Assembly: GCA_036172245.1 (NCBI GenBank)
Contig: JAYWIR010000020.1
Coordinates: forward strand, 3,100,001-3,164,000
DNA from: Raillietiella orientalis
Taxonomy: Eukaryota
DNA length: 64,000 nucleotides
Direction: 5' to 3'
Numbering within the stretch: position 1 is the first letter of the stretch; each line of letters begins with the position of its first letter. Below, in pieces: positions 1,261-41,583 of the stretch. The notes beneath the pieces are model-generated. The model searched no databases and was not told where the DNA came from. It saw only the letters and a program-made list of their open reading frames with translations. Position numbers and translations under genes: made by a program.

Positions 1261-1299
1261 CGCTTCCGGCAGGAGTTCCGAGAAGTAAGCCAGCCTTGC

Positions 1300-8950: not shown

Positions 8951-9599
8951 ATCTTTCCTTGAAGTTGCACCCTGAACAGAACTTCAACTTTTTCACTAAT
9001 AATTCTAAATAATCAAAAGCGAGACCTTGAAAGGATAAGGAGTGCCTCCGCAGTCAGGGAGCGAATTCGCCGATGATACGCAGGAAAGCCATGGCTCCAC
9101 ACCACTCCACCGTTCGTCCGCGTGCATGGAGCATTTTCCCATCTGTATAACTTTCACTTTTCCAGTGTGCCAAGTAAAAACACGCTGCGTTGGGCGTTTG
9201 TCTGTAAGCGGCGTGAGAAATGCATTTAGGAAATTATAAATTGGATGTCTGACGTATCAGAAACACATGAGGGGAAGACGAAGGAATGTGGTTTTACTGA
9301 TGTTCTGAGTACACCTGCTCATAATTTGGATAATGCATTGAAAGTGTACTCGAGCAACATTCTTGGCTTCAAGAGGCAGATCAGCAATCGTTACGAGCTC
9401 TGCAACCCAGTGAGGTTCAGATATTTCCGTGTTGGCTGCTTGTACAGTGGCGCAAATAGATGCCACAAACGCGACACTCGGATGTGTTTTCTACACATAT
9501 ATAAAACAGATGCGGAAGCACCTCCACGTATGCATCCGTGCTCTTATACACACAGGATTCACGTGTGCATGTGAAATGGCGAAACGATGGGAAACGTGA

Positions 9600-10150
9600 T
9601 TACGAAAATCCCATCATCTAGTGATCCCACCCACCTCGCAGGCTAGCGAGATGAGAAGGATTATCGATCATAACAAATCAAGCAGGCTTGAGTAGTTTCT
9701 CTGGATGGGAACTCTCTGGGTTTCTGGACTGTTAATTACTGCAAAACCTCCAAAGCTCTTTCGATAATTAACTTATCTGTTTCCCTGACTACGATGACTG
9801 CTCGTGACGTGAAGCATGCGACGATGAAACACTTTCCCCGTACTCTTCGATCTGAAAGAGCAACGTGATATCTCAGCCGGTCTGTAGCATCGAAAGAGAT
9901 GACGATCTATGAGACTAGCGAGATGTTTGTCCAGGAAGCTCTCTCCGAATGCATTTCGGCTTGGCAACACTATGACAGCATACCAGAGGTGTTCCCCTTC
10001 ACGTGATCCGTTTTCGAAACGTGGGTCACATCGAGCTTCGAACTCTCTCATCATGTGTGCCGCCTCCTATAGGAAAGCAAGAAGGACTGTCTTTAAGAAG
10101 GACCCACCTCCCCGGATCTGACGCTGTGCTTTAAAAATTAATCTTCCTGC
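9600..10150 (-). mobile_element. Degenerate BEL/Pao integrase fragment
   Basis: Minus frame reads KCFIVACFTSRAVIVV (cf. CLFTCxxTRAVHLE) and SFSSR*PARWVG (cf. FIPPxAPWWGG). Confidence 0.55.
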
Positions 10151-10438
10151 ATTTCATCTAGCTATTCATGCAGTCTGTGATGAAAACGCGAGAATGTCAA
10201 GATGTCAATCCTTTGTTACTTCGCATAGAGGATGACCGAAGGAATTCATTTTAGGAATGGAGATTTCGTTCGAAGAAATAAATATCTATCCTCCTTCTTA
10301 CATGCAAATGAAGCGAGACTGTGGTGGAATCCAGGGAGAGGCACAAGACCGGTAACCAGGTTGCGATTAACGGGAACGAATTTCAGGGTTTCCAGAAAAG
10401 GGTTCTCTCGCATCATCATGATTGATTCGATGAGTTCA

Positions 10439-11155
10439 TGATGCTCCCATTGTGAAAAACCCTTTCACACGTTGAAGAATTCGAAAAGCATCAAGAACAT
10501 TATACGGAAGAAGCTACAGATGAAGATGTTTCGATGCGGTTTTCATGCCAATTCCAGTCCTTTCTCCTCTTTTCTGGACCATGCTTTTGTCTTGCCTCCA
10601 ACCTGCAGTAAGAAGATCGAGATCACTGCACTCTCGCGATGAAGGATGGAACCTGCCTTTGCTCCAAGCTTCTGCTTGAGCACCTAAGACTGGGAGACGC
10701 TGCCCATCTTGTGATCTTGAACCGCCTGCCATCTAGCTGGAAGTGGAATGCAAGCCCCTTCCCAGGCTGCTTCCGAAAAAGCCGGGCTCTGTCCTGAACC
10801 AACCCTCCTGGGAACTCAGTGATCGGGAAGTGGTGGTCTGAAAATCCAGATCTCTCACCTTGCAAGATATTGCAGAGTGAAAGGACGTGAGTGTCTATGC
10901 TGGATTTTTGTGCTGGATTCAGAGAGGTGGCAGAGAAGGCTGTATCCTGATAAGAACCGAACTTCTGCCACCGGAATCTCCCACACTTCTTCAGCTCATT
11001 TCCCCTTTCAGTTCTGCTTGTGCCAGGATACTCATTGATCAAACATAGGATTGTTTTCCATCGAAATAGTTCCGACCTGTAGCTCCTCCCTACGGTTCCT
11101 GGTGTTTTTTCGAATTCTTCAACATGTGAAAGGACTTTTCACAATGGGAGCATCA
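10439..11155. repeat. ~80-bp imperfect inverted repeat (10439-10519 / 11077-11155) formed by two opposed Pao gag zinc-finger fragments
   Basis: tgatgctcccattgtgaaaa...gaagctacag matches the reverse complement of ctgtagctcc...ttttcacaatgggagcatca. Both arms encode CSHCEKxFHxLKNSK; the minus copy continues to a GDSGGRSS protease-like motif. Confidence 0.75.
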
Positions 11156-14625: not shown

Positions 14626-15775
14626 ATGATGGAAAGTTGTAAAATACTACATCCTTCAACCAGAAATCATCTTTCTATCTTGCTCAATCCCAAAAAGCTG
14701 CTTACAACAGATAATGGTCTCCCTAGGTATAAAATAATAGCTTAAAGGTTTAAAGTCTTCCATTACTGTTATCTCACCAGAGACTGGCGTGGTTTAGCTG
14801 AAATGATTGGGTTGCCAAGTACGTATATTTGTAGTTGTGAGGCTAGCAATGATCCCACAGCATTAGTGCTGCAGCTATGGCTAAACGACAAGTTGGCAAT
14901 AACTCCCACCATTAATAGTCTGATTCACTGTCTTGAAAGCATAGACCGATTTGATGTCATTGATGATATAATGCCTTTAATTGGTGAGCTATGTAGCTTT
15001 CTAAAATACTCATGTTTGAACCCATTTATCTCTAGAGAGAGACATTTCCCAGCAAAACTCCCAGAAACGCATTGCATCAGATTGGAAGCATGCTGATGTG
15101 TTCTTGCTGTATGCAGATTGTGATGTACAATTTGCACAGCAAATTGCTCAATTTTTAGAAAATGAGACAAAGTTACAAATCTATTTTGCAGACAGAGACA
15201 TGCCAGGAGGCATGTTGGACATCCCTACTAAGCTAACAATTGCAGAACAATGCCACTATTTCATCATCCTACTGTCACCTGCATTTTTTCATTGTCCCAT
15301 TGCTCAAGTTTGCACCAGGTTTGCTCAATGTATGTTAGCAAGTAAGTGGCCCAACCCTCCATAGGATATTTCCATTTGTTACATAGATAACAGCAAAATC
15401 ATCCCCATCATTTACCAAGCTTGTAGCATCCCCAAGCAGTTTGAATTCCTCACATATTTCAGCAAGCTTGATTACTCTCGCAGTGAGCAGCCAGACATGT
15501 TCTGGCAACGACTGAAGAATGCCCTACTGATGAAATACAGTGCTTGGGAAACCAACAAAACAGATGGGAACCACCATGATGAGGATTCTGATTACTGTTC
15601 AGAAGAATCTCTGGTTGGCATGGTTACATCAAATCCAACCAATCAGGTGTCTTCCCTACCACAACAATCAGGGCCAATTTCACTCTTGCAGCGTGTGTGC
15701 AGAAGGAAAAAAACACACAGCAGATCCAAAGGTTACCTTCAGCTTAACATCCCTGAGAACAATTTATTAAATTAA
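14626..15775 (+). CDS. MyD88: Myeloid differentiation primary response protein MyD88 (death domain + TIR), ~332 aa
   Basis: Exons 14626-14726, 14781-14983, 15036-15341, 15387-15775 with GT-AG introns of 54, 52 and 45 nt and consistent phases (999 nt). Death domain LSILLNPKKLLTTDNGLPRDWRGLAE...LESIDRFDVIDD; TIR DVFLLYADCDVQFA...DRDMPGG...KIIPIIY...FWQRLKNAL. An acceptor-like ttgcag at 14610 suggests an upstream exon. Confidence 0.92.
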
Positions 15776-18700
15776 CTTCACGACCATTGGTTCCCCAATG
15801 GCACATTGTTCAAGTTTAACTTTTCTTCGTTGCTTTTTTATCTCTCTTTTATCAACAGGCTCAGCTAACAATTTCTACAAATCCGTTAGCCCCGCATTTC
15901 ATGATTACTCTTCATATCTTACCAGTAAGCTCTCATCTTTCAGTTCTTTCTCTGAACTATAGAAGGACTTATCAAAGGGCAGTCCTGTAATTTTGTGTGA
16001 GCCTGTCTTCATCAACAGCACCGTAAATTTGAACTGGGTAACAATTTCACCTGGTTTCTCGTACAAAACATGGAATGGCTCCACTAATTTGTGAGTCACA
16101 CACTCCACCAAACCCATTCTTGCTTTCTTTTGGTCAGAAAAATTCCGTAAATGGAAAGGCAACAACTGGAACCTCTTCTCTGTTTCAGAAAGAAAGATCC
16201 TACTAGCCTTCAGCTTTAGATTGTAGGCTACCTCAGTTTTCTTGTAGACAGTGGGACGGGGCTCCTGCTCTTTTGCCTGTGAGAAATAACTTTTGTTTTA
16301 AATGCCTACAGACAGTAGATGCATGTGGTACCTGTCCTTCTCCAGTGGACATGAGCACATCCATAGCATATACCTCATACATTTCAAATGTTTCTTTTTC
16401 TTGATCACGCCGTTGTTGCTCATTAGGGTTCTGAATGATAGTTTTCTTGCCATCAATATGGAACTGTTGTAACTGATGACTTAACATGCCTTCCATAGGA
16501 TGGCATCCAAAAGCTTCAGCAACTTTTTGTACAGCATCAGTTACTGCTGTATTCTGGTGTCTTCTGTTATCTCTTGATTTGGAATTCCAGAGATCCTTAC
16601 CTCATTTCCTGGCTGCACAAGTCTCAAAGCAATTTCAGATGCATAGTATGCTGCCAGCATAGCATCTGCTTTTGGTCCAGTGACCTTTTTAAACTTGGAA
16701 GCTCCAATCACAATTGTATGAGCAACCACTGCTATGAAGCCATCAATATGTGCACCTAAGTCACTAACAACAGAATCTTTATCCGTTACTCGATTTTATG
16801 TATCACTTACATTTTGACCACATCACCATCCTTTACAACAACATCTGTATCACTAGACAATGGGGAAAAATGACACACACAGTTGTTTATTGAGATGCAA
16901 GTAGGAAAGGCAATCCCTAACAAAAAAAAAAATCATGAATGCCTGGAAAAACTGAATATGATCAAGGACTTGTAACTTCTGGAAACTTTAATCAAATATC
17001 TTGAAATAAATGAATGAAATTAAAACAAAAAATTGAAGGAAAAAAAAAAAGACTTAAATGTCTAAAGACTCTAATATAACAAATTTGCTAACAGTACGAA
17101 CTAATCATTATGGACAGTGATTTCTAAACACTAAGGAATTCATAGAACTAAAAATAAAATATGAACTTTAAATTAATAAAATGAGAACAGAATACTACTT
17201 CTATTATGCAATGAATTCAGCATTCACAAGAAACTTTTAAAATTAGATGGTATGCATATATATGCAACAAAACATCATCACTATAGATATCTTAAATCAA
17301 TACCACTAATTCCAAACAAGTGCATCAACTGTTGACGTTACATGCTGCAATATGCATTTAACAAAATGAGAATCCACTAACAGTGCTGGCAAAAATACTT
17401 CCCAAATCTATTTACTCTTACATAAGCAATAATTACTAACATATATACAAAAGGGTACATAATTTAACCTTTTATTGCACAAACTTGAACTTTTGATTCT
17501 CTAATCATGGTTTTCCACTGAAATTTGGGGAAGTAAATATCATGATTTACTTTTTATGTAAAAAACTTTGGCAATAACAGTTGCTAGTTAGAAAACCTGA
17601 ATGTTCAATTAAGTGTATCATATTTCCAACATTTCAAAGTTCAACTACGATCTTTTACACTAACAGCATGAAAAATTGATACACCCACTCAAACCTATGT
17701 TAATTAGAAATTACAACTTTGTGTTCAGAAGGCATCACATACTTCATCAATTACTTTCAACAGAATACTAGACATGAAACTTCCACTACAGAAAAGATTA
17801 GAATACCTGATGAAATACAAAGTACGGATGATAACTAATTAATGGATTTAGCATGTAGCCATTAAATTAATAAACACTGATAACATACTTACATCCTACA
17901 TACTAAAAATTAGAGCAAAGAAATCATTTATCTTTCAATAGTATGAATAACTGAATTCTTTCAGAAAAAAAAATCGAATTTTTTACTTCACAATTGATTT
18001 TTTCATAGATCTCATTATTAACGTTTACGTATAATACGAAAACAAAACATGGAAAATAACCAGACATACAATCAGTGGACAGATGAAGACCAGGGAAAAA
18101 ACAGCAAAGCCTAATTTCTAACTGGTTTGCCTCTGATGATAGCATTTATAGATGGACAAGTAAATAAATCTGAAACATGAACACCCTAGCTATTTAATAA
18201 ACCTCAGGGATCCTTCTTGCTTGCTTCAACATAGTTCTTTAAAATACACTAATAACCAACACTTCCGGAACATGGCTTATTTACATATTGCATAAAGAGT
18301 TCAACAATGAATTGTACAACTCTAGTTAAGGCTAATAATTTAAAACAAATTAAAGCAGATATAGCATAAAATTATTTGCATTAATTCATTAAGCTGTAAC
18401 ATCAATACATCATCACTAAAAAATGTGTATCAAGAACATAAAATCATAAAGTTTAAATCATTCAGCAAAGAAATTCTCAGCTGAAATTTGAAAGTTAAAT
18501 CAACAAAAAACAAAATCTATCATAATTCTTAATTTAAGCTATTGCTTAGTAGTTTAAATAAAGAATAATTACAATAGAAAGAAAGAATTATGATAGAATT
18601 TGTTTAGTAATTTAAACAGAAATTTGTGCTTAGTACACTCCTTTGCTTTTGTTTTTTTTAAATTTAATCTCTTCATGTTGATGCTAAAACAAAGTCTTGT

Positions 18701-19253
18701 TGTACTAAATGAGGTGCACTGTTTAAATTTCTAGCCTCACATTCCTAAGTTCCATAACATGTAATCCAACATCTATACTCTTTTACATGACCACATGCTT
18801 GTAGATGTTACTTTTATAACGTAATCTGAATAAATCAATTTATTATTTTAAATACCTTTCCTAAAATCTTTTTCCTTTTTAAAAATGGCATCCGTTTTCT
18901 CAATTATTAACCTGTCACCTTCCTCACACAATTCTCTGACAGAGGTTCCGGACTTACATTTTTCTATTAATTGTGTCAAAACACCTAAAACAAATAAAGG
19001 GTACATCCAACATGCAATAACCTCGATATTAAATCTAGAATAGTACAACCATAAAAAGTGTGGCCGTTTTTAACAGCCGAATTACAAATACGTACAAATA
19101 CAACAGGGAAATGAGGAATAATCACAAACTTTCAAATTCAGGATTTAACATAAATTCAGGAGTTTTGTTCTTACTATTGACAATAATTCCACATGCTTTG
19201 TATTTGGTGACAACAGCATCTTCAGCAATAGTTTTTTCATCCTTTTCTGCCAT
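15767..19253 (-). CDS. PA2G4: Proliferation-associated protein 2G4 (EBP1, M24-fold), ~386 aa
   Basis: Exons 19175-19253, 18856-18984, 16811-16916, 16601-16763, 16332-16553, 15923-16276, 15767-15874 (1161 nt, all GT-AG). Motifs: [91 protein letters not shown]. Confidence 0.95.
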
Positions 19254-20909
19254 TTTTTAAACCATTGATAACGCGCTTTTATTATGGCGCTTTCCGTCCA
19301 CACACATATGACGCAAACTTTAAAGTCAATTCTTTATACTGTAATTATAGAAGAAATTGTATTATCATTAAATACTTTTACTTGGAGAAAACACATATAT
19401 ATCTAGCACACATATTTAATAAACACAAGAAAATATAATATGTTGCGAAACTTCTTTGTAGCGAATAAGTATAAAAGAATACAGTAAATGCAATAAAAAA
19501 AAAATTCGAATGGTCAAAAATACCTAAAACTCCAAACTTGAAACCATCCTGACATACTCATACCTCTGTATGAGATTGAAAAGATAGTGCATTTGTTTTG
19601 TTTTAAGATTAATACCACTTATGAACGCAAATGAGCATGTATTTGAAAGATTTAGATATTGGAAGCATTATTCATTCTTTCAGCAACCTTCCTGAAAAAA
19701 GAATACATCAAAGATGACATCCTCTGTTTCTTTCTCAGAAATTGAGAAATCACTTATTGAGAATTTAAAAAAAACATGCAAATCTAGCGTATAGGTCTCA
19801 ATTCCAAATGTTCTTATTTTCTGCAAAGTATGATTACTAGTTCATAAAACTTTCTAGTTCTCCGGAACTATAATAGTTCAAGTATTCGACAAAAGCCAGA
19901 ATCTACAAACGGAATCAGACAAAAATCGAAAAAACGTCGAAAAATCAAGCTCTACGAGGTGAAAAACAGATCCTTAATATTCAGCTGTACCTTCGATTAT
20001 TGAAAACTGAGCTACTAATAACAAGATGTATATAAAACACGAAATTTGTGTCTATTTGAATACACATTATCTTTATTTTTTAGTTTGATAGTTGTCGATA
20101 TATCAATTTGTGATTCCATGTGACATAATGTACTTCAAAAACAATTATAATAGAAAAGATCTGTAGAGCGAACCTTTCTTTACTTAGCGAATTCAAAGCC
20201 GCCTTTTTTTTAATATAAATTCACTGAATAAAGTAGCACGTAATAATGAGAAACTGAAATGAATGAATTCTATAGGAAACTTAACTACAATTTCTAGAGA
20301 ATTTTATTGCATGTTTCACTAAATTTCGAATAATTATGAAATAGCTCAGCTGTATTATGAAATGTTGGAGCAGTATGTATAAAATTATTGAAACAATATT
20401 TAGAAATAGATGACATTACAGAATTAAATTTAAAATGAATGAATGGAAAGATAAAAAAATCCCAGAAACTAATCTCATACCAAAATCTAGGAAAAGTTTA
20501 GAGGATCTCCCAAATCTGAAGCAAGGGATGGAAAAATTATATAAAACTGATCTCACTTCATAATTTGAACCAAATACAAACTAAAAGAACTAAGACTTGA
20601 ATGTTTAAGGAGTTTTTATTTTTTTTATACTATCATTAAAGACTTTAATATTAAATTCTAATTAAGCAGTGCTTAATAAATTCATGCTAGAATTACAAAT
20701 AGCCACAAGAGAAGAACTTTTTTTGAAATTTTCCCCCATTTTACCTAATCACGCGATCTAACCTGGTTAACGACTATAGCGATTGCCTATGAACTTGTAG
20801 TCACTCAGTATTTCGTGCTTATCTTCTCCAATCTTACCTTCCAACTCGGTTACTTGGCTCTCTGTTCCTTCGTGTGTTGCCTTTTTCGACGAAACTCTCG
20901 CATATAAAC

Positions 20910-21003
20910 ATTATGCTTTCACTTGTTTCTCCCTCTCCTTACAGTTCCCTCGTGAAATTATGCTTTCACTTGTTTCTCCCTCTCCTTACAGTTCCCTCGT
21001 GAA
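20910..21003. repeat. Perfect 47-bp tandem duplication
   Basis: attatgctttcacttgtttctccctctccttacagttccctcgtgaa occurs at 20910-20956 and 20957-21003. Confidence 0.95.
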
Positions 21004-22984
21004 TACAGCTGTTTTGGACAACTGTTTTTGCCTAATTGGATTACTTCTGTAAACTCTACAACTCTACCACTTCTTACCATCCGTTTTTTTTAGATGTCAT
21101 TCACCTTCAATCATTAGCCAGATCTACGAATTTTTTGCTTTACAGTTTTTACCTAATTATTACATGTCTGCTGCTTTTCTTATTTATAATCATCTCTTAT
21201 TCGAAATATTATCATTATGCCATCAAGATTAGTTTCCATCCTCTCAACTAGGGCCCTTATTATACTACGTTTACCCAACCTATCTAACTGATTAAGCTTT
21301 GATCTTATCCCAGAAGAGACCTCTTTCATGCTATTATATGAATCAACTCTTCTTTCTCTGGTCCATTATTTTTTATTTATTCCTTTTTCTCTTCAGTTTC
21401 TTTTAAACATTGTTTTGTTGCCTTAATACTTAGCTTAAATTCCCTTTGACTTAGGTATTCTTCAGCATTCCTATCAATTAGTCTTGAAATCTCTCGTTTT
21501 AACTCGCTTTTTCTCTTTCAAGATCTTTCTCGGACGCTCTTTATTCTATACAGTCATTTCCATTTTATTTAAAAAATTATGAGAGTTTGATTTTCCCAAT
21601 CACGTGATTACTGTCAATTAGTATTTTTGTCTCTTCAAAAAAGGAAGTTTAGTTGCCTTGATCGTATACATGTGTTTTAGGTAGTAGACCCTATGCTTAT
21701 TTTTGGTTAGTTCAATATCTTTTCGAAAGCTTAGTCATAATTTATACGTTAAAATGGAGTATTTTCAATGAACTTCTAAAGAAAACTGGATCTCTCTGTG
21801 TCTGGGCAGTGGGTTGACATGGGCATTTGGTCTGACGAAAAAGGGTATCATTCTAGCGCGGGAAAAAAGTGAAAAAAGTGCATATTTTTTTTTTAAATAC
21901 AGAGAAGTGTTTGCATTCATAATTTATTTGTAATATACTAATTACATAGTATTTTTTACTCAGGATGCAATATCAGTGGTTTTAAGGAAATACGTGAACA
22001 GTGAGTAGTAGTAGCATTCAAGGAAAAAATGGTCGAGAAAAGTAACCAAAGGATTTTATTAGAGTGCAAATTTGAGCACTAAATGTAAATGTTTACTTTT
22101 CTCATGAAGTTGAAACGAGTTTTGTGCTGCAGAGCATAAGCAGTGAGAACTATATCGTAGTCGTAGCTTTATTTGATAAGAGTGTGAATACTCAGAAGTA
22201 GAAAGTATCTGAAAGATATGAATAGGAAAATAATATGTGACTTCAGTGACATTGAGGAAGATACATATGAAGCAATATTAAACACAGTTAAGCTCATTTT
22301 TGATGTTAGATCTTTTCCGTTTGACTGAAGTCAAGGAAAGTAGTCTTCAGGTAACTTGGTAGACTTGAGTTTGTTACACCTATAGATGTCAGTGTAATCT
22401 TTAATTTAGTTTCATTTGGCCGCTTCTCTTGCTAAAGATTTCAGAAAGGTATGTGAACTGTAACATGTTTATTAAAACAACTGAGACGGAACAATATTTG
22501 TGGCACAGTAAATTACCTAGTGCAAAGTTGCATAAGCAATTTGAAAACATGTGTTCATCAAGAATGAAAAGATGTGAAAATATTAAAATAGTCTGTTCTG
22601 TTCTTAATAGTCTTTTAAAGGTTAAGGTGAATGATGTGTATATTAGGAAAGGAAAGTTTTTGATAACTTTCATTTTATTGAAAGTACAGTGCAGTGCATT
22701 ACATCACCTGTAGACCTGTATTTTTTAAGTTAATAATAATTGCAAAGCAAAGAACAATATTTGTTTAAAGGTAAAATAATAAGACATCCTTACTAGTCAG
22801 CAGGATTGGATATAAATGGCTTTGTGTGTGTCCCTGTCTAGAAGGCAAGAAGCTTCAATTCTTATACTTGTGATATGTGATAATAAAGTGGCTAAGCTAT
22901 TAACAAATGAAGAAGCTTTATATCCAAACGAGACATTTGATAATTGTGAAAGTCATCACTGTCAACTTATAAATTAAACTGATC

Positions 22985-23795
22985 ACCAGCCATAGCAAAA
23001 TCAAGCAGCGTGCGATTTTTTTTTTTCCTCATAATAATATCAGAACTATGCTCTAGAAGGGCTATAGCAATTTGTTCATGCCCTTCATTAGAAGCAATCT
23101 GAAGAGTTCTACCATATTCATACCTACTCACATTCTTTAGAATCAATGTCAGTGCTGAATTTTAAAAGAAGCTCGATAATTTCTTTTTGAGCAACAATGT
23201 GGAGTGGTGTTAGGTCAGTTTTAACTTTGCAATTAACATCTGTGTTGTATTCCAACAGTGCCTCAATAACTCCCACATATAGTTCACATTTTTAAGTAGC
23301 AGCATGTAGCATTGTTATACCATTTTTAGTTTGAGTATTTACATTAGCTCCTGGACTCAAAAGCAACTTGGCAGTTTCTCCCTTAATATTAACATTAGGA
23401 TCTTTATCAAGAAAAATACAAAAAAATCCTCTATCCTTGTCTAAAGCAATAATACGCGATAGCATTCTTCCATGTTAATCCCTAGCATCAACATCAACAC
23501 CATGTTGTAAAAGAACTTCAACAATTTCTCTGCATTCCTTCTTAACAGCAATATTCAATGGTTCAGGATTATCTTCTACATTAGCATTACCAGTTAAAAG
23601 TAGCTTGGATATTTCTATATCGGCATTCTCAGCAGCCTAAAGTGGAGTTTTTCCAGTTTTATATTGAGCACCTACATCAGCTCCATGGCGTATCAATAGC
23701 TTAGCTACTTACGCCTATTTGGTTTCGGTTTCAAGAACATGTAAAGGCAAACCTTTTCCAGATGTTGGGTTGTATATACGAAGAGTTGTATAACA
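22985..23795 (-). pseudogene. Wolbachia/phage WO-like ankyrin-repeat gene fragment (pseudogenised nuclear insert)
   Basis: Minus strand, intronless, with stops and frameshifts: VAKLLIRHGADVGAQYKTGKTPL, IVEVLLQHGVDVDARD, DPNVNIKGETAKLLLSPGANVNTQTKNGITMLHAA, ALLEYNTDVNCKVKTDLTPLH. The ankyrin call is clear; Wolbachia origin is inferred from recalled similarity and from adjacency to argD and repA fragments. Confidence 0.75.
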
Positions 23796-23824
23796 TACGA
23801 ACAGCAGTACCGTATTTTAAGACC

Positions 23825-24588
23825 TCAACTGTGATTTACCAGCCAAAGGAGTCTTAAGCTCTATTTCTATTAGTAAACCCTCTCCACGAACTTATGAAAT
23901 TATCTTTGGAAATTCTTAAGCCAAAGGTAACAGTTTTTCTCTTAGATACTAACGAATCTTAATATGATCAAGAAAACTTTTTAACGTTACATTCGGAACT
24001 GCATTACAAAGGCCGTAGCAAGTGGACTACCAATATATGCTGATGCCTGAGTTCCTGCAGTGATTGCAAACGCTATATAATCTTTTAGTAAACATGCATC
24101 CATGGCAAATCCGTTACCCATTGCCTTTGCACAAATTAGCATGTCAGGTTCGATTTTTATATTTTGATAATGGAATAAAGAACCGATGAGCCCACATCTG
24201 CATTGCACTTCATCAAAGCAGAAGATCAAGTCTTAAGTCTCTGTTATCTCTCTTGCTTTCGAAGTTACTCCACATTCAGTGTACACACTCCAGCACATCA
24301 ACGTCATTCCTTGGAACTTTATGAAGTCTACAAATGAATGGAGTGAAACAGCGTGATTTCCCATTTCGTCCAGCAGAAATCGCAGGGCAGCACTGCGGTC
24401 ATTAAATCCTTTTTCTATTGGAATGTTGCGGTTACGCTTTGCTTGTCCCCTCTACGTGGAAATAACGGCAAATAGATGCAACTGCAGATTCTGTTGCTTC
24501 AAGCCTGCTAAGGCAAAAAAAAAAAAAAAAATCCGCATAAGTTAAGTGCTGCTGTTAAACACTCAGCAAGCCATTCTTGGTCTGTATC
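23825..24588 (-). pseudogene. argD: Bacterial (Wolbachia-like) acetylornithine aminotransferase pseudogene, 5'-truncated
   Basis: Collinear class-III PLP aminotransferase motifs across stops and frameshifts: SRLEATESAV, QAKRNRNI, AISAG, KVPRND, FCFDEVQC, EPDMLICAKAMGNGF, GSPLA, YLREKLL, VRGEGLLIEIEL. Closely resembles Wolbachia ArgD as recalled. Confidence 0.85.
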
Positions 24589-25600
24589 AATTGAGCGCGA
24601 GGTCAAGAAGCAGACCTTTTCCTGTTTCTCCTATTGTAGCTACTGTTTAAGGAAGACCGACAGGAATTTTTGCCTTGACACTGAACCAGTTTAGCCATTT
24701 ACTTTCCAACCCAGAATTTGCAGTGCTAGTTTCATAATGATTGTTCTTCAGTTGCTTTTAGCAAAATGAAAAAACTTTATCTTTTCCCAAACACCATCTC
24801 TAGTATCACAAATTTTTGGTTTTATCTTGCGGAATTTCTAGAACAGAAAGCGATGCAACTCCAAGTTCCAAAAGGCTTTTTCCAGTATTTTCGAGGTATT
24901 TATTACTTGCTTCATCATTATCCGGCCATATAATGATATGTTTGCCCTGTAAGCAGTCAGTTTTTTCAGGAGACGTTCGGGCCGATCGTTGTAGTTGTAG
25001 CTGTAGTAATTTCTTCCTCTATTAGCGCGTCTGCTCATTTGTCTCCTTCTACTAAGACAGCTTTATAGGATTTTAAGATATCTGGAATGTTATACAGAGA
25101 CCTCGTTCCTTTTGGTGCAATAAGTCTGGATCTTTTTGCGTCAAATAGTTTACACTCTTTTTTTCCTTAAGGGGAGTCATAGAGGTAAACCTTAGGGATG
25201 AACTGATCGTTTTCATCGTAGTAATTCCAGCTGTAAGTAGCAATTTCATCAAGCTTTTGATCAGTTTTTTGCGCTCCTGGACATTTTTTTACCACATCCA
25301 AGCCAGCCACTCACTTATAAAAGCCATCACTTCATAAAAGTCTGTTTGCACCTTTTCCCTGTGCACTAGCCTCCCCATATAGCAATAACATCACCTTTTT
25401 CTCCGGTTGCTAAGTCCTGCCGGACTTCTAGCTTTTCCACCAGTTAATGCTACCTACTTTCTAAGAGTACCGCTTACTTGGAATTAAGCGATGCTCTTAG
25501 GCTGTGTCCTTTGCTACCATCAACGTCACCTATTCAAAATTCGTCCCCATAAAAAGTACCTTTGGGAGATGGGTGAGAAAGGCAGGATGTTTATTTTGAT
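24589..25600 (-). pseudogene. repA: Phage WO RepA-like (TOPRIM primase + AAA) pseudogene fragment
   Basis: PKGTFYGDEF*IGDVDG, DLATGEKGDV, SWNYYDEND, RSLYNIPDILKSYKAVLVEGDK*ADALIE (TOPRIM Glu), IIIWPDNDE (DxD), LLELGVASLSVL, then Walker-A-like GETGKGLLLDLAL. Truncated where it joins argD. Confidence 0.8.
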
Positions 25601-25769
25601 GATGGTCGTGCTTTAACATCGTATGACACATGCATAAATTCACTTACAAATTGCCTTGATTGTATTCATCTGATTTACGAAAACTGTTCAGTTCTGTCTA
25701 ACCAAAGTTTTGAATTCTGAGAGTTTAAAAAAAAACTTTATTTTTTTAGAGAGAAAAAAAAAATCATGA

Positions 25770-27300
25770 CCTTCTAAGGCATTGTTTCCATGTCCTACAA
25801 TATTTACTAAGAAAATTTGGTCCCGAAGTCTTTCATTAAGATGATCTAGAAACTCCTTAGGAAACTCTGATCCTTAAGTTATAAATCACCTGAGCGCTCC
25901 GCTGGCCAAGATGTGGAAGATATAGAACAAGACCTTTTCTGCAACTTTTTTTCCATGCATAGATGAGTACGATAAAAGTGAGTGCAGTCTTTCGAGTTTT
26001 GCTAATCAGGGCACTCCTAACTCTGAAAACGATATGCGACAGTGAAAGAAAAAAACTGTTGCTTTGAGGATGAAGCGATAACTACGCGTTGATGCTGAAC
26101 AAATCATTCTGGAGCTACCAAAGGAATGGCAGGGTTTGTGTGAACAGCTGAAACAAGATACAGCATCGCTGCAAGTTGCACATAACAACATATCACGAGC
26201 TGCTTTACACATCTCAAGAAAATGCCATCCAACTGTGCACCTATTAATGGAAAAAGGCGCGAGAATAACTGAACCCCCCCCCTCCTTCCTGAAATTTGGC
26301 GAATTCATATACAGGGAAGTAAAAGTATGAAAATCATAAATGGTGAAGAAAAAGCAAAAAATGGTAACAGGTGTGAAGTAATTTTTGGGGCTCGTGGAAT
26401 CAGCAAGACTATTTAAACGGGTACTACTTGTTTTATTTCTTAGGCCACTTGAAACTTTCGATGAGCCCACACCACTATGTGTGGATTTTGAAGAAGGACT
26501 CCTTGCTGTGCGGCACTGGGAAAAGGATTCAATCAGCATGCTCACTTGGAATGAGGCAAGGGATCTCGTTTGCCTTCTTGGCGGACCTGCAGCAAAGTCC
26601 GATAAAGCATACAGTTAAAGAAACTAATATGGAGATCTATCTGAGATCCCTAAATACCGTCTCATTTTTATCGACAGTGTAATTCTTGCGACCTTTTTGT
26701 GTCTTTCATGGGCAAGGATGCAACCTGAGGCTTCTCCTGATAGGTCGTGTGAAAAGGATATAAAACAGCCGCTAACGGTACACGTGCTCAAGAAATGATG
26801 GCTTGGCTCAGTCAGTTTCAACAGACCAGAAATAAAGATATCATTACAGTTGGGATATTTGTTCAGTAGCTGGATGCTCTTAATCGTCCAATATGGCTGC
26901 CTCGACGCGAAGGAACCAAAACTGCAGGTGGAATTCCTCGGATTACTGGTGAAGCAATCAGCATGGTTGGAATCAAGCAAAATGATGGTACAGAAGTGCA
27001 TTCATTTATCTGTTAGGCCCATTAACTCCTGGGGAAACTCTGCTAAAGATTAAAGTGAATGCCTTAGTGCGGCTGAGGGACCTCGCTTAGGTAAACTACT
27101 TACAAAAATCCAGAACCAACTTCGACCTTAGAAACCTTAGAAATGGAGGAATCTGACTGATTTCAACATTGCGAAATCACAGAGTGATTTAATACCTAGA
27201 GATACAGTAGTAAATCACAATGCCTATGAAACTTAGAGGTTATGAATGCAGTCCCACTAAAAGGCCCCACTACGGGTAGTATCTATGTAAACGCAGTTTA
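25770..27300 (+). pseudogene. Endogenous viral element: orthomyxovirus-like polymerase subunit PB2 (central part, decayed)
   Basis: Ordered motifs across frameshifts match recalled influenza PB2: SYNIY*ENLVPK (AYMLERELVRK), FLKFGEFIYR (FSFGGFTFKR), VRHWE (IRVHE), DSVILA (EAIIVA), WLSQFQQ (LLRHFQK), ISMVGIK (MSMRGVR), KIKVNALVRLRD..GKLL (VSIDRFLRIRDQRGNVLL). No introns. Confidence 0.65.
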
Positions 27301-27579
27301 CCGTCACGGAAGGTCCATATTCAAAGAGCAATATCCATCAAGAAATTGGGATAAATGAAAGGCAAAACAGAAGGCACTTAAGATGTCTGGAGAGAAATAG
27401 GTAGTTCTTTGATTCGAAGTACTTTGGAGTCAGCACACAATATCCATCCACCTGATAATTCTGAAAGGGGACTCTTTCCTGTAAACTGAACTCCATTGCA
27501 CATTTAAACAATTTGGAATTCAGGGCAGCGGTGTGTAGCTGATCGGTATAAAGTGAGATTGCTGCGTTTATTATTCCAA

Positions 27580-28150
27580 ATGAGCAACACCAAAATGTAC
27601 CGAAATGGATTGGTGCACTTTATAAAACTATTTTTGGAGGATGTTTTCTTACATGAACAAATCCCAAAGGAATCAAACGTTATCGATTAACAACCTGAAC
27701 GAATGCCTCTCTCATTTGTTGCTTGGTGGCAATTTCATCAGTGATATGGATGGAAGTGTTGAACAAGAAACGGATTTCTCAAGATGAAAACGTAGATAAA
27801 GCTAGACTTTCATCCACTTCAACTGGAACCGATACAAACCTAGTTACAGGATTACTTGCTGAACACGAAGGAGCCACCAAGTAGCTTGGCAAAGAAAATG
27901 TGATACCAGTTTACGGTTCATTTACAAAGAAGCCCTCAAACGAAGCCCGGTAGAAAGCGTTCCATCCGTTAGTGTACGGATAATTTGGCTACTCAGGGAT
28001 AAATGGGATTTCACAAAACAAAAGTACCAAGAGGCAGATATGGATTGCTATGCGTTGAAACGTGAGAGTGCTTTCATACTGGATGGGCAACCATGGAAAT
28101 ACAGGGTGCAAAAGGAAGTGTGGTGATACTAATTTAGAAACCGGGCACTT
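27580..28150 (+). mobile_element. piggyBac-like transposase remnant
   Basis: VHFIKLFLEDVFLHEQIPKESN (cf. FxLFFxxxxxxxIxxETN) and a degenerate KxHP motif; highly decayed. Confidence 0.35.
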
Positions 28151-28349
28151 TGGTTAATGGACCGCGTAGGTGAAGACGGAAGTCGTGCTGTCATCGTTCC
28201 TGACCACTTCCACGCTTGTATCACGTGATCGCGTTTGACATTCAGTCCCGAGGTGCCAGCTAACGTTTCTGCGGTTGTTTTTCTGCATCCTGTCGAGGGG
28301 TCTGCTCACTTGCTGTCCTGGGTCATCAGAAACCCAATCTGTCTGCTAT

Positions 28350-29490
28350 TTGGACAATACTAAGAAATTTGTATTCTTCAGTTGTTTCAAGTAGCACTCT
28401 AAAGATGCGGATACTTGAAGTTGACTGTTTACTTACAACTTCCGTGTCATTAACATAAACAGTATTATCTACTACGTTTGATCTTGATAGTTTCTTCTCT
28501 TGATAAGTTATCTTTTGCGGCGGTATATAAGAATAACAATTTAATGCTCGAAAAGAAATATTGGGTTATAATAATACTAGTACTCCCTTTTCACCTACCT
28601 CGTTTAGCACTTCATTTAGGGTTCGATGTTCACAAATGAAACCAAACATAGGAACAGCGTACAGAGTTAGCAATGATCTGAGATTTTTTTTCCGTTGAAA
28701 CTGAGCAAAGCAATAAGTGAGTTTTTCACTTATCTACGGTTAAGTATGATTTATCAGAGGAACAATCTGGAATAATCACGCTTACAAAGTTTGTACTAAT
28801 AATCACATAATAAACTCCTGTTGTCACTTTATCCCAAGTGATGTTTGAAAATTGCTAATTGTTGAGATCCATTCTATAACTTACAAATATTAGCTTTTAT
28901 CTCTGTGGGGTAGTAACGTTTTTTGTAGGTATCAGGAAAAACATCACTATTACAGAGGTCACCCATTATTGGTTCATCATATTCTTCATCGTGGTCACTT
29001 GCGATTTCTAGCCTACTGCTACAGAAAGAATCCATTACATGGAGATCAAACTCATCTTCATAGTTCTTACAGATCATAAAGTAGCATTCTCTCAAACTTA
29101 AGTCTCTCTCAAACTTAACAAAAGTCTCAAGGTGCCCAACTTCTATGTAATACTGACTGATTGAAGCATAGGAAGTATTCCACTTTAGCAAGTCAGTAGC
29201 TATTTTTTGGCCTATAATTAGGGGATTGTGCTTTCGCAAAGATGGTAAGTTCATACGTCCTTGAACAAACATTTGAGATCTTCCCGATTTTTTTTATCAA
29301 GTTCGTCCTCCGAGTAGTTCATTGCTGTATAGTTTGAATCCTGTACCTGTGAGGATAAGGTAGCCTTTTTGATTTTAAACATCACCTCCGCGTATTGGAT
29401 GAGGGAGATCTCATGTAGCACGCAATCAACCGAAGGTTCTAATACATTTAGCCCATTTTTTTCAACGCCATTTGTAATCAACGTGAGATA
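28350..29490 (-). pseudogene. Decayed intronless ORF, probable RNA-virus polymerase fragment (Bunyavirales L-like, tentative)
   Basis: ORFs 29251-29481 and 28874-29272 join by one frameshift and continue as interrupted protein-like frames (WDKVTTGVYYVIISTNFVSVIIPDCSS). No TE or cellular motifs recognised; viral family assignment is weak. Confidence 0.35.
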
Positions 29491-30579
29491 AGTCTGTGGT
29501 TCAGCCGAAATTGGGGTTTACCTACGCTAATACCATTCAGCCCTGATTTTGGTACACACGAAATGAGGAAGGTACGTATTTGTGCTACTGTGTTTTGACC
29601 ATGTTAGCTGACAAACGAACATTCAGGATGAAAATAAAAGTTTGCAGTACCTGCAATACTGTTTGCTGGTTTTAAACCGTACTCAATTCTTTTCATGGAT
29701 AAATTGACTGGATCGGCCTTAGAGGAAAAGTAAAGAATAATCCGACCAGGTTCGTGACCGTGTATGGCTTTATTTTGAAGTCATTGGCAAATCTTTCTTT
29801 TCACTGGCGGGCGACTTATAAATAAGTGTATACTATTCGGTAGTAAGACGTGAAACTGACCTTGAAAACCATCATTTTCAGAGAGATCACCTTGCTTGAG
29901 CACTGCCTGCACAGTCCTTTCCCTGAAATGGAGCAGACTTTCGTTCCGTACAATGTTTTGAACACGGAGGGTAAAAAGTCTTTCTTTGTACTTGATCGAA
30001 GCAGGAAATATGCTTCAGAAACTTGTGATTCGTTATGAAGGGAGTGAAAGAAGTACTTTTGGTCATATTTGTTATTTTGCAGCAGAGATGGCTTCAGAAG
30101 ATTTTGATTTCACACCAATCGTGCTACTCCAGCGGCAGTTTGTCTCTTACTTTGAACTACTAACAGACCGATTAACCGAATAGTAATTAAACGAAGACAC
30201 GGAAGTGTAGATAAGCGTTTCGCTCTTTTCTTGAGTTGAGACGTCATCATATTTCCCAAATTCCTAATCTTTAAGCAGTTGTCCATTTTGCACATCTTGA
30301 GAACACTGGTTAAAGGTAATGCTCATCTGCCTACCAGAAAGAGGATTATAGGATTCGGAAAGTCCTTGAGCAGAGACAGGCATTTCCACTCTACTTCCCC
30401 AAAATCCCCTGCCAGCATGAGAACGCATCATGCCTAAAGACAAATGTGTTGTATCTAGTGTGGATTAAAATGAGTCAGCAAAGTTCTTTTTGATAAAAAA
30501 AAAAAACAACCTTTTTCATTAAAAAAAAATACCGAGCAGTTTTTGTGATTTTGGTGAACATATATATAATACAGAAGTC

Positions 30580-30960
30580 AAACTTTCAAATGCGAATCCT
30601 CACCCAATTTGGGGAACAATGATAACAACATGACACTTGTCTTTTGACAGATAAGACTAATTTGATGGATACCAAAGCAGTCTCATTTTTGACTGGTGTT
30701 GTGATACACTGGCATGCAAAACATTGACGAAATGGAAGTTACATTGGTTAGCTCAGCATTTTCAACTGCCTTTATTCAGCAAGCTAGTTCTTCCGCCAGT
30801 AAAGCTGCCCTCTTGCATTTTCCCCAATAATAGCTTATTACTACTTCTGTGCTACTTTTCTTGCTTCCACGGTCCTTTTTACCTTCTCTTCCTCTGTGTC
30901 CATAATACCTCACAAATTGTAGGCTCCCAGTGTCGATCACAGTCTTGAAAGATCATAAAA
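30580..30960 (-). mobile_element. Retroviral-type (Gypsy-like) integrase H2C2 fragment
   Basis: YGHRGRE...TEVVISYYWGK resembles the GHxGxxKT...YYWP integrase zinc-binding region. Confidence 0.35.
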
Positions 30961-31138
30961 GATGAATACATGATGTTATGTTAATGCATACGGACTAACA
31001 TACACATTTATTTTAGCATACATATTCATTAATACAATTAATAATATGCATTAATATATCGTTTCGATAATTGGCCTGTTCATGCCAATTCTGCCGTGAA
31101 TATCTATTCCATGAAAATTGCAGCCAACAGGTGTCATC

Positions 31139-32360
31139 CTATCGGGTAAAGCCCATTCTGTTATCTTGACTAATCTTCTTTCTTACGGTGTTAATTAGTT
31201 CCTCTGAAGGTGTTGATAACCCTGTCGATAAAGTCGATAACTGTGAGCTTTCTGGCATAGGTGATTCAACGGACGCATCCTGAACTTTAGAATCAGCTGA
31301 GTGCATGAAAAAAGCGTAGTGCTCTTTTCTTCCTCCTGTGTTCCAGCCAACTATTTTTTGCTCTGCTTTTTTTCTAAGGAGTTCTTCATCTTCCTCTTCT
31401 TGTCTTTGTACTCCGTAAAATTCATCTAGGTGATCGATGTCTTCTCCTGCAAATTTAAACAAATTACTTTTCGTAGCCTCATCTATCATTTGCCGTAGTA
31501 ACAGGTCTCTCCAAGCTGCTACTTCCAGTCTTTGTCGCTGAATCATTTCCTACCAATGCCGTAAATCTTTTATCATAACTTCCCAACTCCTCTTCCGTGT
31601 GCGACGAAAATTCCTCGCAACCTCGTAAGTGTTGAGAGAAACTCCATAGTTCGTTCCATTCTCAAATGATATTTTTTTGAAGTATTCTCATCACTTGGCA
31701 CATACATTCCCTCATGCGAAATGGTAATTTTTCCTTCTTTTACCACCGCGATCTTTATTTTTCCAGTATGGACCCTTCTCCCCATTTCTCCGGCACCTCA
31801 TCCGTGGCTGCAGACATCTCAAATGTGACATCACGATGGTCTGGTCGATGAACTAACTCGAGTAATCTTCATCCACAGTCCCTAAGAGTAATCCTGCTGC
31901 CCCAGTCGGAGTGGTCAAAATGTCAGCGATCGACTGTTTAGGTGCTCTAATCCTTGGCCCCTTTCTCCCATTTTAGCATGCATACCTCTCATTTTTAGCA
32001 TACGAACACGTCCCCACTGTCACTTATCACTTCAAACTCGGATGGAACCAACGGAGAATTTACTTTGACCAACAGGCCATCGTTGCATGATGACGAAAAG
32101 TCGCAAAGAAAGATGGAAAGCATTTGAGACAGCATTTTTGGTATATGAGAAAAAAATTCATCTCGAGAAGATCTGTAATACACTATTGGACCAAACTCTG
32201 GAATTACCTCTCATGTGCTGATAACGATTTCCTCAGCATCCCCTGTTGGACAGGAAAAATGCTTATCGTTGTGTTCCTCTCCATGAATAATCTGATACCA
32301 CTGAATCACTAGGAAGCTTCTTCCTCATGCTGTTGTAAGCTTCCTCGCTGCTTTCTGAAG
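31139..32360 (-). pseudogene. Decayed C-terminal part of a large intronless protein, probably viral (EVE candidate)
   Basis: ORFs 31995-32183, 31573-31785 and 31139-31546 chain by stops and frameshifts into ~400 codons, end in TAG, and are followed by an AT-rich UTR-like tract (30960-31070). The 5' side is cut at the hairpin element at 32361. Confidence 0.4.
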
Positions 32361-32699: not shown

Positions 32700-33691
32700 A
32701 TCGTGCTACTCTCGTACCTCTTATGTAGCAGAATCACACAAGGAGAGGTTTATTGGTATGCCAATAAACAGTGACCTACGACGATTCTTAGCAAATACCA
32801 ATTTTGAGAAGATCATCTGCCTATTCACTCACCGAAACTTTTGGACTCACAAGCGTTTCTTGACACACGACCGACCGGCAACTTCTGCATGCCTTCGCAA
32901 TCAAAAATTTGAAAAGAAATGGCTTTGCTTTGATAAGAAAACAAAAGTATAAATGTTCATTCATCAGATGTTTCGCTACGACGATTCTTTTTGCAGAGCT
33001 GTTGGTTTCTTCGATGATCCTCTTGACAAGCTCTTCTGTGAAAAATAACTGGAAACATTCTATTGGTTCCACAATGTTAGATGCAATCTGTGTGTGGTCC
33101 AGTGACCCTGGGCGATACTGTGAAATCAATCCTTTTTGGAATCCTTTTGCTATCCGTTCTATCACCTTCTCCGAAAGAGTTTTCACTCAAACATTCCAAT
33201 TCTTCGTCACCTGTTCACAAGAATTTCGCCATCACTCGCACTTTCTTCAGATGCACTATCAGTTGAATTGTCATCGACTGGGTATAAATGAAGTTCTTGA
33301 CTTTCACTCGATTCGAAATTTACACAGCCCCTTTCCTTTTTATCAGCAAATCGCTTTGCAACGAACTGATGGCAATTAGAGAGCAACTTTTATAGAAAGG
33401 TCGACGTCCTGTTCGAAAACAAACTTTAAGTCACGGCTGCCGCTTTACACTGTGTATCACTTGCAGAGCAGAGATCTGTGACTGGAAGCTGTGAAGGATC
33501 ACGGCGCTTGCTTTCACTCACTTTGCATGCCGACGAACGGGTTGCACATTTTTGGTCTGCAGTGTAAAGAATGCATAACTGTGGTCCATCATTCTAACGC
33601 ATCAACACAATGCACGTCCCCTCAGCGGCGCCAGTCGATCCGTGGTGCCATTTTGAATGTCCCCTCAGAGGAGCCAGTGAAGTGCAAATGG
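32700..33691 (-). mobile_element. 5' portion of a piggyBac DNA transposon with terminus and TTAA target site
   Basis: ORF 32821-33186 has EPIECFQLFFTEELVKRIIEETN (typical piggyBac/PGBD N-terminal motif). Minus-strand end reads TTAA|CCATTTGC (TTAA at 33692-33695), with subterminal direct repeats GTCCCCTCAG(C/A)GG(C/A)GCCAGT at ~33616 and ~33659. Confidence 0.75.
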
Positions 33692-35580
33692 TTAAAGTCC
33701 GCTTCCTATGTCTCAGATCTCCATTTTCAAAATGCATTCAGTCTAACAAACAAAGAGCTTTACAATATGAATGCAAACTATAAATTGACCAACCAGCCTT
33801 CATGAAGACGAATTTCGTTCTCCCTTCTATGAGAAAAAGGAGCTCCAGTGATGCAAGAACCGTTCATTGCTGGCAAGGTGCTTTCTTCAAACCTCGACTC
33901 TGAGGTGGCAGTGAGTTTCTTTCCAGTAACTCAACGAAAATACCGCATTCACAAGCAAGGGATCGTTTTACATATGATCTGAGAATTCAAAGGTGCATTT
34001 TGCTGAAGCTTCATGACATTTGAACATTTTCTCTCATTATTCGAGAGAACTAGGACCTATTTCCTTCGATGCCCGAGAAATTCCAATATGTGAAAATAAC
34101 CGTCACGTTCGGGAAACTGCCGCACATGCAGCCACAAATCACAGCAAGTTCCGGATGAGATTTTGCGACAAATTGCTGTTTTTTTATTTGAAAGCTGGAA
34201 AAACTGTGATACTTATATGCAGAAAATGAATTAAATTTTTAGATGGTGAGAAAGGGATATTCTGGATTACTGTTATTAGGTGGAGTAAATCCAAAGTAGG
34301 AATCTTGGGAACCAATACTTGAATACTCGTACATCAATGAAACTGCGACCTGCTTTATTGAAATTAACTCCTTCTAATGATGAACAAGATCACTTGCATT
34401 TTAAAATCGTACCATAAATCAGCAGTGAATTCCATCCGAAACAGCCTACATCTATCCAGTGTACTTGTGTTCAAAACACTTCATCAGTTGAAGTCTTCCG
34501 AAGAACTATCACATGGTTTCATATTTCAGAACCATTTCGTTGAAGCCTTTCTTCCACCGTTTCCAAAATAGTTAACAATTTAAATTCTTTCATAAAAATC
34601 TGACTATATAGTCGGACAATCAGAAATACCTGGAAAGGGTGGCAAAATTGACGGAAACGCCAAGTTGAAGGAGATTCAGTATGTTGGAAATTGAAGTCGT
34701 AGGCTAGCAAAGTATTCTCTTCTTTTGGCTTAGCCTTTGGGTGTGATCAATTCATGATTCTCCTAAGGCGGTCAGCGTAAGGTATAAACATTTTACTCCG
34801 GGTTGCGTCCTTAATGAATACCAAGTTTCGAACGTAACTTTGCTTTTACCTCAATTTATTCTTCTCTCCTTTAGCTTTATTCAAAGTAGGAAGTTTAGGG
34901 AAATTTTAAATTGGTCTTACGATAACTTTCTATTCCACTCTTGCAGCACGAACAAATTCAGAATATCTATAGAAGTGAAGCAGCATCCAGATTCTGTTCA
35001 CCATTCTCAGTCTTATAAAGGAATGGTTTGAAGCAATCATGTAGACTAATTTGAGAGGAAAAAATGGCAGACAATTCGAAAGATCCTTGGAGTTGACAAA
35101 AATGGTCAATATTGAAAGATTGTTCTATTTCAACTCTCGTCTTTATTAAACGGTCACACAAAAAACTTGGAATTTGGATTTTACTGCAAGAATAATGCAA
35201 GAAAATGCAAATTGAGTTCCATTCGGGTCATCCATCATTATAACTCATGTAAACTGATACAGTCGAATATTATCTAGTATGAAAAGAATGTATTGAAGAA
35301 AAGTAATTTTGAAGATACTTTTTCGAATGTTTGGAGACAATTTTTAGCAGAATAATTTAACAAGAGGGCTCAAAATAAGCCTTTTCGTGGAACGAAAAGT
35401 CTTATTTTGTTTTAAAATGAAAAACATTAGTTGTTGAAAAACATAGTTTGTCTGAAAATGAGAAAACATTTTTTCCATGTCATGTATTTTGAAAGTTTGC
35501 ATATCTTCCAAAGAGAGAATGCAAAACAGCTTTGTAAAACACTAAAACCGGTAGTCCTTAGGGAAGTTCACCTGGTCATT

Positions 35581-40758: not shown

Positions 40759-41583
40759 TTAATCCGTACTTGTAATTTCTACACAACATTCAGTGGATGG
40801 ATACTTTGGAAGATTCAACTCATACTGTTCTTCTAAACATGGGGGCACAAATCGCCCACCCAAATAATGAATACCTTTGAATTTCTTTGCACATAATTTA
40901 GGAGCTGTTAACGAAATTAACAAACTTGGCTGAATCCCATCACAATCACCATCTTCTACATTCCAGCCAGAAGGTATGTCAATAGAACATAAAGGGATTT
41001 TCGCCTTTTTCATAAGTTCAATGCAATCTACAAACTCACACCGAACAGGTGGTTTAAAGCTAAATCCAAACAAAGCATCCACTATAATATTATATTTTAC
41101 ATTTGTTTCTCCAACAGAAGGCAAGTGTTCTAAAAAACTTATGCCCATTGCCTCACACTGCACAACTAGTTTACTATACAAAGGATTCTCGGTTTTCTTT
41201 GGGTAAAATACATCTGGACTATACCCAAATAGTTTTAAATGACGCGCACAAACGAGGCCATCGCCACCATTATTACCTGGTCCAGCTAAAACTAGAACCT
41301 TTGTGACTGTGGCAGAAATAGAATAGCATTTAGCAATTGCAGTAGCACAACTTAAGCCAGCCAATTCCATCAATTGTGCTACATCAAACTGGTATTTATG
41401 AAATAATTCCTGGTCTATACAGATAGCTTCACCTTGCTTCAAATACTTCATAGTTTGCTTGTTGTTTACTGTACAGTAACGTTTAATGGAATAGAACTTC
41501 AAAATGCTAATACCTAAGTGCTTATAGTCCACATATAATCGTTTGACGGGTTGATAGCACTTAAAGATTTTATCTATCACCAT
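40759..41583 (-). CDS. NAXE: NAD(P)H-hydrate epimerase (YjeF_N / ApoA-I-binding protein), intronless, 274 aa
   Basis: [83 protein letters not shown]. The conserved domain starts at a second Met (41451). Confidence 0.95.

Follow-up and report, generated by a model that had tools for sequence, protein, structure and literature searches.

Fragments of three bacterial-type genes, an ankyrin-repeat gene, argD and repA, lie side by side and broken on the minus strand of a nuclear contig, raising the question of where they came from and how they came to be joined. The original prediction read them as a chimera of three genes of Wolbachia and phage WO type, possibly assembled by template-switching reverse transcription of symbiont transcripts or by large internal deletions. 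We compared the 64-kb window (the whole stretch of DNA analysed) with fetched Wolbachia and WO loci, 60 Wolbachia genomes and a collection of phage records. The three fragments proved to be real, decayed and derived from Wolbachia and phage WO (E-values to Wolbachia genomes reach 1e-127), and to form the middle of an 11.3-kb, eight-piece insert rather than a three-gene chimera.

Eight abutting pieces of Wolbachia and WO DNA

The blastn comparison delimited a nuclear Wolbachia transfer (nuwt) of 11,302 bases at 20747-32048, and matches to the fetched Wolbachia and WO loci cover 10,344 bp of it; the rest of the 64-kb window gave no blastn match to these loci, and further Wolbachia DNA was looked for beyond 32048 and not found. 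Matches to the nuwt occur in 58 of the 60 Wolbachia genomes. When the part at 21500-29400 was searched by blastn against 50,697 phage records, 12 were matched, all of them Wolbachia phage WO, with the annotations "ankyrin repeat protein", "acetylornithine aminotransferase" and "similar to RepA" under the matches. The eight donor pieces come from WO recombinases, uvrD, an intergenic repeat with a hypothetical gene, an ANK-PRANC gene, argD, a replication block, a symporter and baseplate genes. They abut or overlap, with gaps of 0 to ~70 bp except at the site of a host repeat, and WO-type DNA makes up ~8.7 kb of the 11.3 kb (77%). The view that everything lies on the minus strand held for ankyrin, argD and repA and failed for the insert as a whole, where the plus strand carries 6 of the 16 gene pieces; the common strand of three neighbouring pieces is thus unremarkable.

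At the left end, piece A (20747-21545, minus) comprises the end of one WO serine recombinase and the start of the next from a tandem array, both decayed, at 73-77% identity to the tandem recombinases of genome G030 with collinear spacing and with Pfam Resolvase/Recombinase domains on the donor ORFs. Within it, a perfect 47-bp tandem duplication at 20910-21003 is apparently recent. Piece B (21558-21742, minus) is a ~185-bp shard covering aa ~398-466 of a core 638-aa gene, matched at 72-76% in many Wolbachia genomes, whose donor protein sequence suggests a UvrD/Rep-type helicase. Piece C (21743-22944, plus) carries a multi-copy Wolbachia intergenic repeat and upstream DNA followed by the N-terminal ~290 aa of a ~700-aa hypothetical protein, and is collinear, intergenic DNA included, with G005, G056 and G008. 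The donor hypothetical protein matched no Pfam family, and an identification as cifB was dropped, being unsupported by Pfam and by the donor neighbourhood. Inverted repeats flanking pieces B and C were taken as chance, one arm being ordinary Wolbachia intergenic DNA.

Piece D (22968-23829, minus) is the broken middle, aa 394-740 of 946, of a phage WO ankyrin-PRANC gene, 76-77% identical to copies in G002, G041, G036 and the wVitB WO record. The donor gene encodes Ank and C-terminal PRANC domains (Pfam), a gene type placed in the WO eukaryotic association module in the available part of the source (PMC5062602). Relative to the intact 946-aa Wolbachia ANK-PRANC protein, piece D has 6 stops and 7 frameshifting indels, and in the tree it clustered with four Wolbachia copies, apart from 11 host copies (bootstrap 100, terminal branch 0.20). 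It is therefore not a host ankyrin gene, in line with the original prediction, and its Wolbachia grouping and stops set it outside the CLANK-like ANK-PRANC family of this host.

Piece E (23825-24582, minus) is argD (acetylornithine aminotransferase), a gene annotated in MN180251.1, and is 69-77% identical to 49 Wolbachia argD genes. Predicted to be the N-terminal part, it is in fact the middle of the gene (aa 72-343 of 392), with 5 stops and 9 frameshifting indels against the intact donor gene. The predicted switch from argD to ankyrin repeats exists, and the alignments move it from ~23800 to ~23825-23835. A run of 16 A at 24516-24531 aligns to a run of 7 A inside donor argD, reading as T on the coding strand.

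Piece F (24572-30608) is a ~6-kb WO replication block, collinear with prophages of G044, G030 and G055, in the order repA/primase (minus), intergenic DNA, sigma-70, AAA_24 and two hypothetical genes (plus), and two further hypothetical genes (minus); Pfam searches of the donor ORFs returned AAA_25/Toprim, Sigma70_r2 and AAA_24. The minus-strand repA starts near 25620 and runs down to a break at ~24572-24591 directly after GETGKG, a Walker-A-like motif, as predicted, with the expected switch into argD at ~24588 correct to within ~10 bp. It is not the free truncated fragment that was envisaged: its 5' end is whole, and a single 2,462-column alignment to G044 continues through intergenic DNA into the plus-strand sigma-70 and AAA_24 genes. 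An internal deletion of ~1 kb at 27109/27156 was the largest seen within the block, and 265 bp at 27934-28198 had no match in the 60 Wolbachia genomes and none among the own-genome matches listed.

Piece G (30662-30851, plus), a shard of ~190 bp, derives from a core gene for a 447-aa transporter and has a single-copy match at 67-80% in most of the 60 genomes; judged by the donor protein sequence, the transporter is presumably of the alanine/glycine:cation symporter type. Piece G is followed by the remnant of a host interspersed repeat (30934-31062), present at 36 other sites of the same genome at 74-94% identity in copies that are alike beyond this stretch. Piece H (31060-32048, minus) contains the WO genes for baseplate J and W, both broken, together with their upstream DNA, 65-75% identical to WO prophages, with Pfam Baseplate_J and GPW_gp25 on the donor ORFs.

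Donor, nuclear setting and decay

In a tree with Wolbachia argD genes, the argD piece fell within Wolbachia diversity on a long branch (support 60-61). None of the six placements was rejected in placement tests from which three short rows (G012, G009 and G046) had been dropped, with p-AU of 0.58-0.86 for five of them and the sixth already in the quick tree without support. Together with the breadth of the matches to WO records and Wolbachia genomes, the sequence comparisons point to a WO-carrying Wolbachia as the probable donor, with its supergroup left undecided by the argD tests.

The nuwt is single copy and sits in a 3.45-Mb contig of a 210-Mb genome. Its left end lies 1.5 kb from the start codon of the spliced host gene PA2G4/Ebp1 (15905-19253, minus; exon matches to PA2G4 chains at E=8e-16 and a first-exon translation), so that the insert is upstream of PA2G4. 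A MyD88-like gene with Death and TIR domains (14746-15775) stands tail to tail with PA2G4, and host repeats occur inside the insert and to its right. The repeat at 32840-33697 has a weak DDE_Tnp_1_7 (piggyBac-like) match, one 98%-identical copy on contig C35 and many copies at 70-80%.

Across the 16 gene pieces, we counted 43 stops and 123 frameshifting indels in 2,878 aligned codons, after dropping one spurious 12-codon row and with indel counts inflated by alignment noise. At donor-invariant sites, the argD piece differed at 42 of 182, 31 of 224 and 9 of 75 sites for codon positions 1, 2 and 3 (23, 14 and 12%), whereas eight living Wolbachia argD sequences in the same test had 2-14 times more differences at position 3 than at position 2. 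The lack of a position-3 excess indicated divergence without purifying selection. This divergence, ~17% raw and 0.19 corrected, corresponds to an age of tens of millions of years if neutral rates of 2e-9 to 1e-8 per site per year are assumed. The codon-position-blind divergence, the 43 stops, the host repeat inside and the spliced host genes 1.5 kb away identify the nuwt as an old nuclear insertion that has decayed neutrally and has no coding function. The stops and frameshifts in the original prediction had thus been rightly taken as signs of age; the A16 run cited with them is the donor A7 run, expanded. No target-site duplication was seen among the repeats listed.

The same features make an assembly artefact, in which a symbiont contig was mis-joined into a host contig, hardly credible: the DNA of a live symbiont would be intact, and here it is riddled with stops and frameshifts, shows no position-3 bias, encloses a host repeat and forms a single-copy part of a megabase contig with spliced genes.

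Two other features of the window were recorded. GC content is 0.46-0.64 towards the ends (1-11000 and 47000-63000) and 0.27-0.32 around PA2G4 (17000-23000). An intronless NAD(P)HX epimerase ORF at 40759-41643 had no relative above 66% identity among 5.8 billion proteins, which suggests that the host lineage is poorly sampled; proteins of spiders, insects, tardigrades and molluscs matched it about equally well, at 58-66%. A search for the odorant-receptor family gave no match, in its controls either, and the host is taken as an invertebrate, probably an arthropod.

How the pieces came to be joined

We examined the junctions against the 60 Wolbachia genomes. The three pieces of the original prediction were non-contiguous in these donors, as it had supposed: no match spanned the argD/repA junction (143 rows listed; 56 of 60 genomes matched) or the ankyrin/argD junction (49 of 60 matched). 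Median spacings between the core genes, taken from the single-contig genomes among the rows listed (15-31 of 60), were 364 kb for argD and the symporter (31 genomes), 338 kb for argD and uvrD (15) and 211 kb for uvrD and the symporter (15). Several donor stretches of different location and orientation were thus combined in one insert, as in complex insertions of the organelle type.

Microhomology was clear at one of the four junctions tested, weak at one and absent at two; old joins erode. At ankyrin/argD, the donor homologues share 6-11 identical bases in register, and the best donor pair, TCAACAATTTT, was equalled by none of 3000 random position pairs; 6 of 15 donor pairs gave p<0.005 and the other 9 p~0.07-0.09, the junction position having been picked after the alignments were seen. 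The recombinase/uvrD junction has a weak overlap of 4-6 bases (best p=0.014-0.08), and neither argD/repA nor hypothetical/ankyrin had microhomology above chance (p 0.6-0.97).

These observations make it probable that fragments of symbiont DNA were end-joined at insertion, like complex numts and nupts. End joining is favoured because the pieces abut, their junctions are absent from the 60 genomes and the core genes lie far apart; because the two core shards measure only ~190 bp and no deletion seen in the 6-kb block exceeds ~1 kb; and because the ankyrin/argD junction has microhomology and two of three other nuwts tested in this genome are mosaics as well. Broken DNA of a WO-carrying Wolbachia would have been present in an ancestral invertebrate germline cell, in the form of large prophage pieces and small chromosomal shards from distant loci. 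The fragments would then have been ligated end to end, by non-homologous or microhomology-mediated end joining as in complex numts and nupts, sealing one chromosome break 1.5 kb upstream of PA2G4, and later neutral decay would have brought substitutions, small indels, homopolymer growth, the ~1-kb deletion and the host repeat insertion. We infer that the joining took place at the time of insertion and by such a repair pathway.

Large internal deletions, one of the two mechanisms first proposed, are a live reading that we rank second behind end joining and consider rather unlikely. One much larger Wolbachia segment would have been inserted and then reduced, by several large deletions and at least one inversion, to islands in donor order. 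Some donor genomes do bring the loci together. In MN180251.1, argD adjoins a WO prophage; G053 has argD and a repA in the window's order and orientation, separated by 13.4 kb; uvrD and argD are collinear at 14 kb in G060; and in G030 and G016 the replication block is collinear with the baseplate genes at a distance of ~47-49 kb. Such single-genome adjacencies (G053, G030 and G016) mean that deletions could give some of the junctions, and microhomology marks deletions too. Yet no single genome has more than one or two of these adjacencies, in all four genomes where argD and the symporter are less than 50 kb from each other their relative orientation is the opposite one, seven big deletions that spared islands of 190 bp would be required, and a younger nuwt on contig C36 is already a mosaic. 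It is improbable that the mosaic was already built in the symbiont, as a WO prophage that was defective or transducing, and reached the nucleus in one piece. The WO-type share of the insert, the recombinase at one end and the baseplate at the other, and the order and strand that the outer pieces share with one WO module in G030 would all suit this origin, and the transfer of neighbouring non-phage genes by WO has been reported (PMC5062602, in its available part); against this, no such junction occurs in the 60 genomes, genes are cut mid-frame at every junction, and nuwts of core genes are at least as frequent in this host as those of WO.

The other mechanism first proposed, template-switching reverse transcription, drew on three adjacent pieces sharing one strand, and RNA-mediated transfer has been suggested for nematode nuwts, with DNA mediation for insects, in the part of the source available (PMC3849323). 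It is nonetheless largely refuted, and we give it next to no weight. Divergent genes and intergenic DNA fall within single collinear blocks of mixed orientation: one alignment runs from minus-strand repA via intergenic DNA into plus-strand genes, piece C carries upstream intergenic DNA collinear with G005 and G056, and six gene pieces are on the plus strand. The idea therefore fails, and the transfer took place at the DNA level. The pieces are not the single-strand, transcript-like pieces of a retrocopy or cDNA chimera, and there is no poly(A) tail, the A16 run being an internal donor A7 run with T on the coding strand.

Known transfers and other insertions in the host genome

The nuwt is a large instance of the well-known transfer of symbiont DNA to hosts, and works like a complex numt. 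According to the available text of PMC6215612, complex organelle insertions arise by non-homologous end joining before or during integration, and their junctions, with short microhomology or blunt, erode with age. Like them, the nuwt joins stretches of different donor location and orientation in one insertion; the donor here is a bacterial endosymbiont with its prophage instead of an organelle. Host genomes with decayed Wolbachia and WO fossils are documented (PMC4046930, PMC8962096, PMC12693587 and PMC4299567, each in the part available), including those of Dictyocaulus viviparus (PMC4046930) and Sirex noctilio (PMC8962096). As in these two, degraded recombinase, ankyrin and structural genes are assembled together with host genes and record past infection; unlike in the available portions of those accounts, which carry no analysis of internal junctions, eight non-contiguous pieces abut here in one insert. 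The chromosome-scale nuwt of Drosophila ananassae, from what the available text of PMC4299567 describes, likewise reflects DNA-level transfer with later invasion by host repeats, but is recent and near whole-genome, whereas the present one is 11 kb, ~17% diverged and scrambled. Our literature search, a limited one, found no paper devoted to the internal junctions of multi-piece nuwts.

The nuwt thus records an old infection of the host lineage by WO-carrying Wolbachia, and, as a large and well-mapped multi-piece case, suggests that break repair is the way into chromosomes for symbiont DNA, as it is for organelle DNA. It has no function of its own, and its value is that of a single case within a genome that has many mosaic nuwts. 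Nuwts are common in this genome: queries of 13 kb and 15 kb from the Wolbachia core matched it 17 and 12 times outside the window, and 20 kb of WO DNA matched it 10 times, all at 66-92% identity, which amounts to no phage enrichment. Core DNA is at least as common as WO DNA among these nuwts, so we place little confidence in a further reading, that complex nuwts are scars of phage WO induction, in which lysis would amplify prophage DNA and shred the symbiont chromosome, and the germline would end-join long phage pieces and short chromosomal shards into breaks. If true, this would link the activity of the phage directly to the passage of genes from symbiont to host, and so also to how the host ANK-PRANC family arose.

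Three other nuwts, on contigs C21, C24 and C36, were compared with five Wolbachia genomes; those on C21 and C36 were mosaics with abutting pieces and the remaining one a single fragment. The C21 mosaic (~1.275-1.278 Mb; L077:2744-5905) combines a 1.4-kb core piece, a 1.2-kb repA piece and two further multi-copy pieces. The C36 nuwt (~437.7-440.6 kb; L082:332-3255) has a core piece 92% identical to G044, a WO piece and a recombinase piece, abutting, and continues past the end of the stretch examined. It is younger and offers better material for junction analysis, and young mosaic nuwts of this kind could test the joining mechanism.

The host genome also contains an expanded, intronless family of WO-like ankyrin-PRANC genes (L068-L076, L078 and L079, on contigs C14, C104, C20 at 3.21 Mb, C65, C6, C80, C29 and C82). 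The family includes several open frames of 615-788 aa, forms its own clade, has pairwise dN/dS of 0.57-0.79 among four copies, and has C-terminal relatives in Wolbachia and several insects. In this it resembles the Nasonia CLANKs. Piece D shares with the CLANKs of Nasonia and other insects the donor gene type, WO ankyrin-PRANC (PMC6161386 and PMC5062602, in their available parts), but unlike those domesticated genes it is a dead fragment, and it clusters with Wolbachia rather than the host family.
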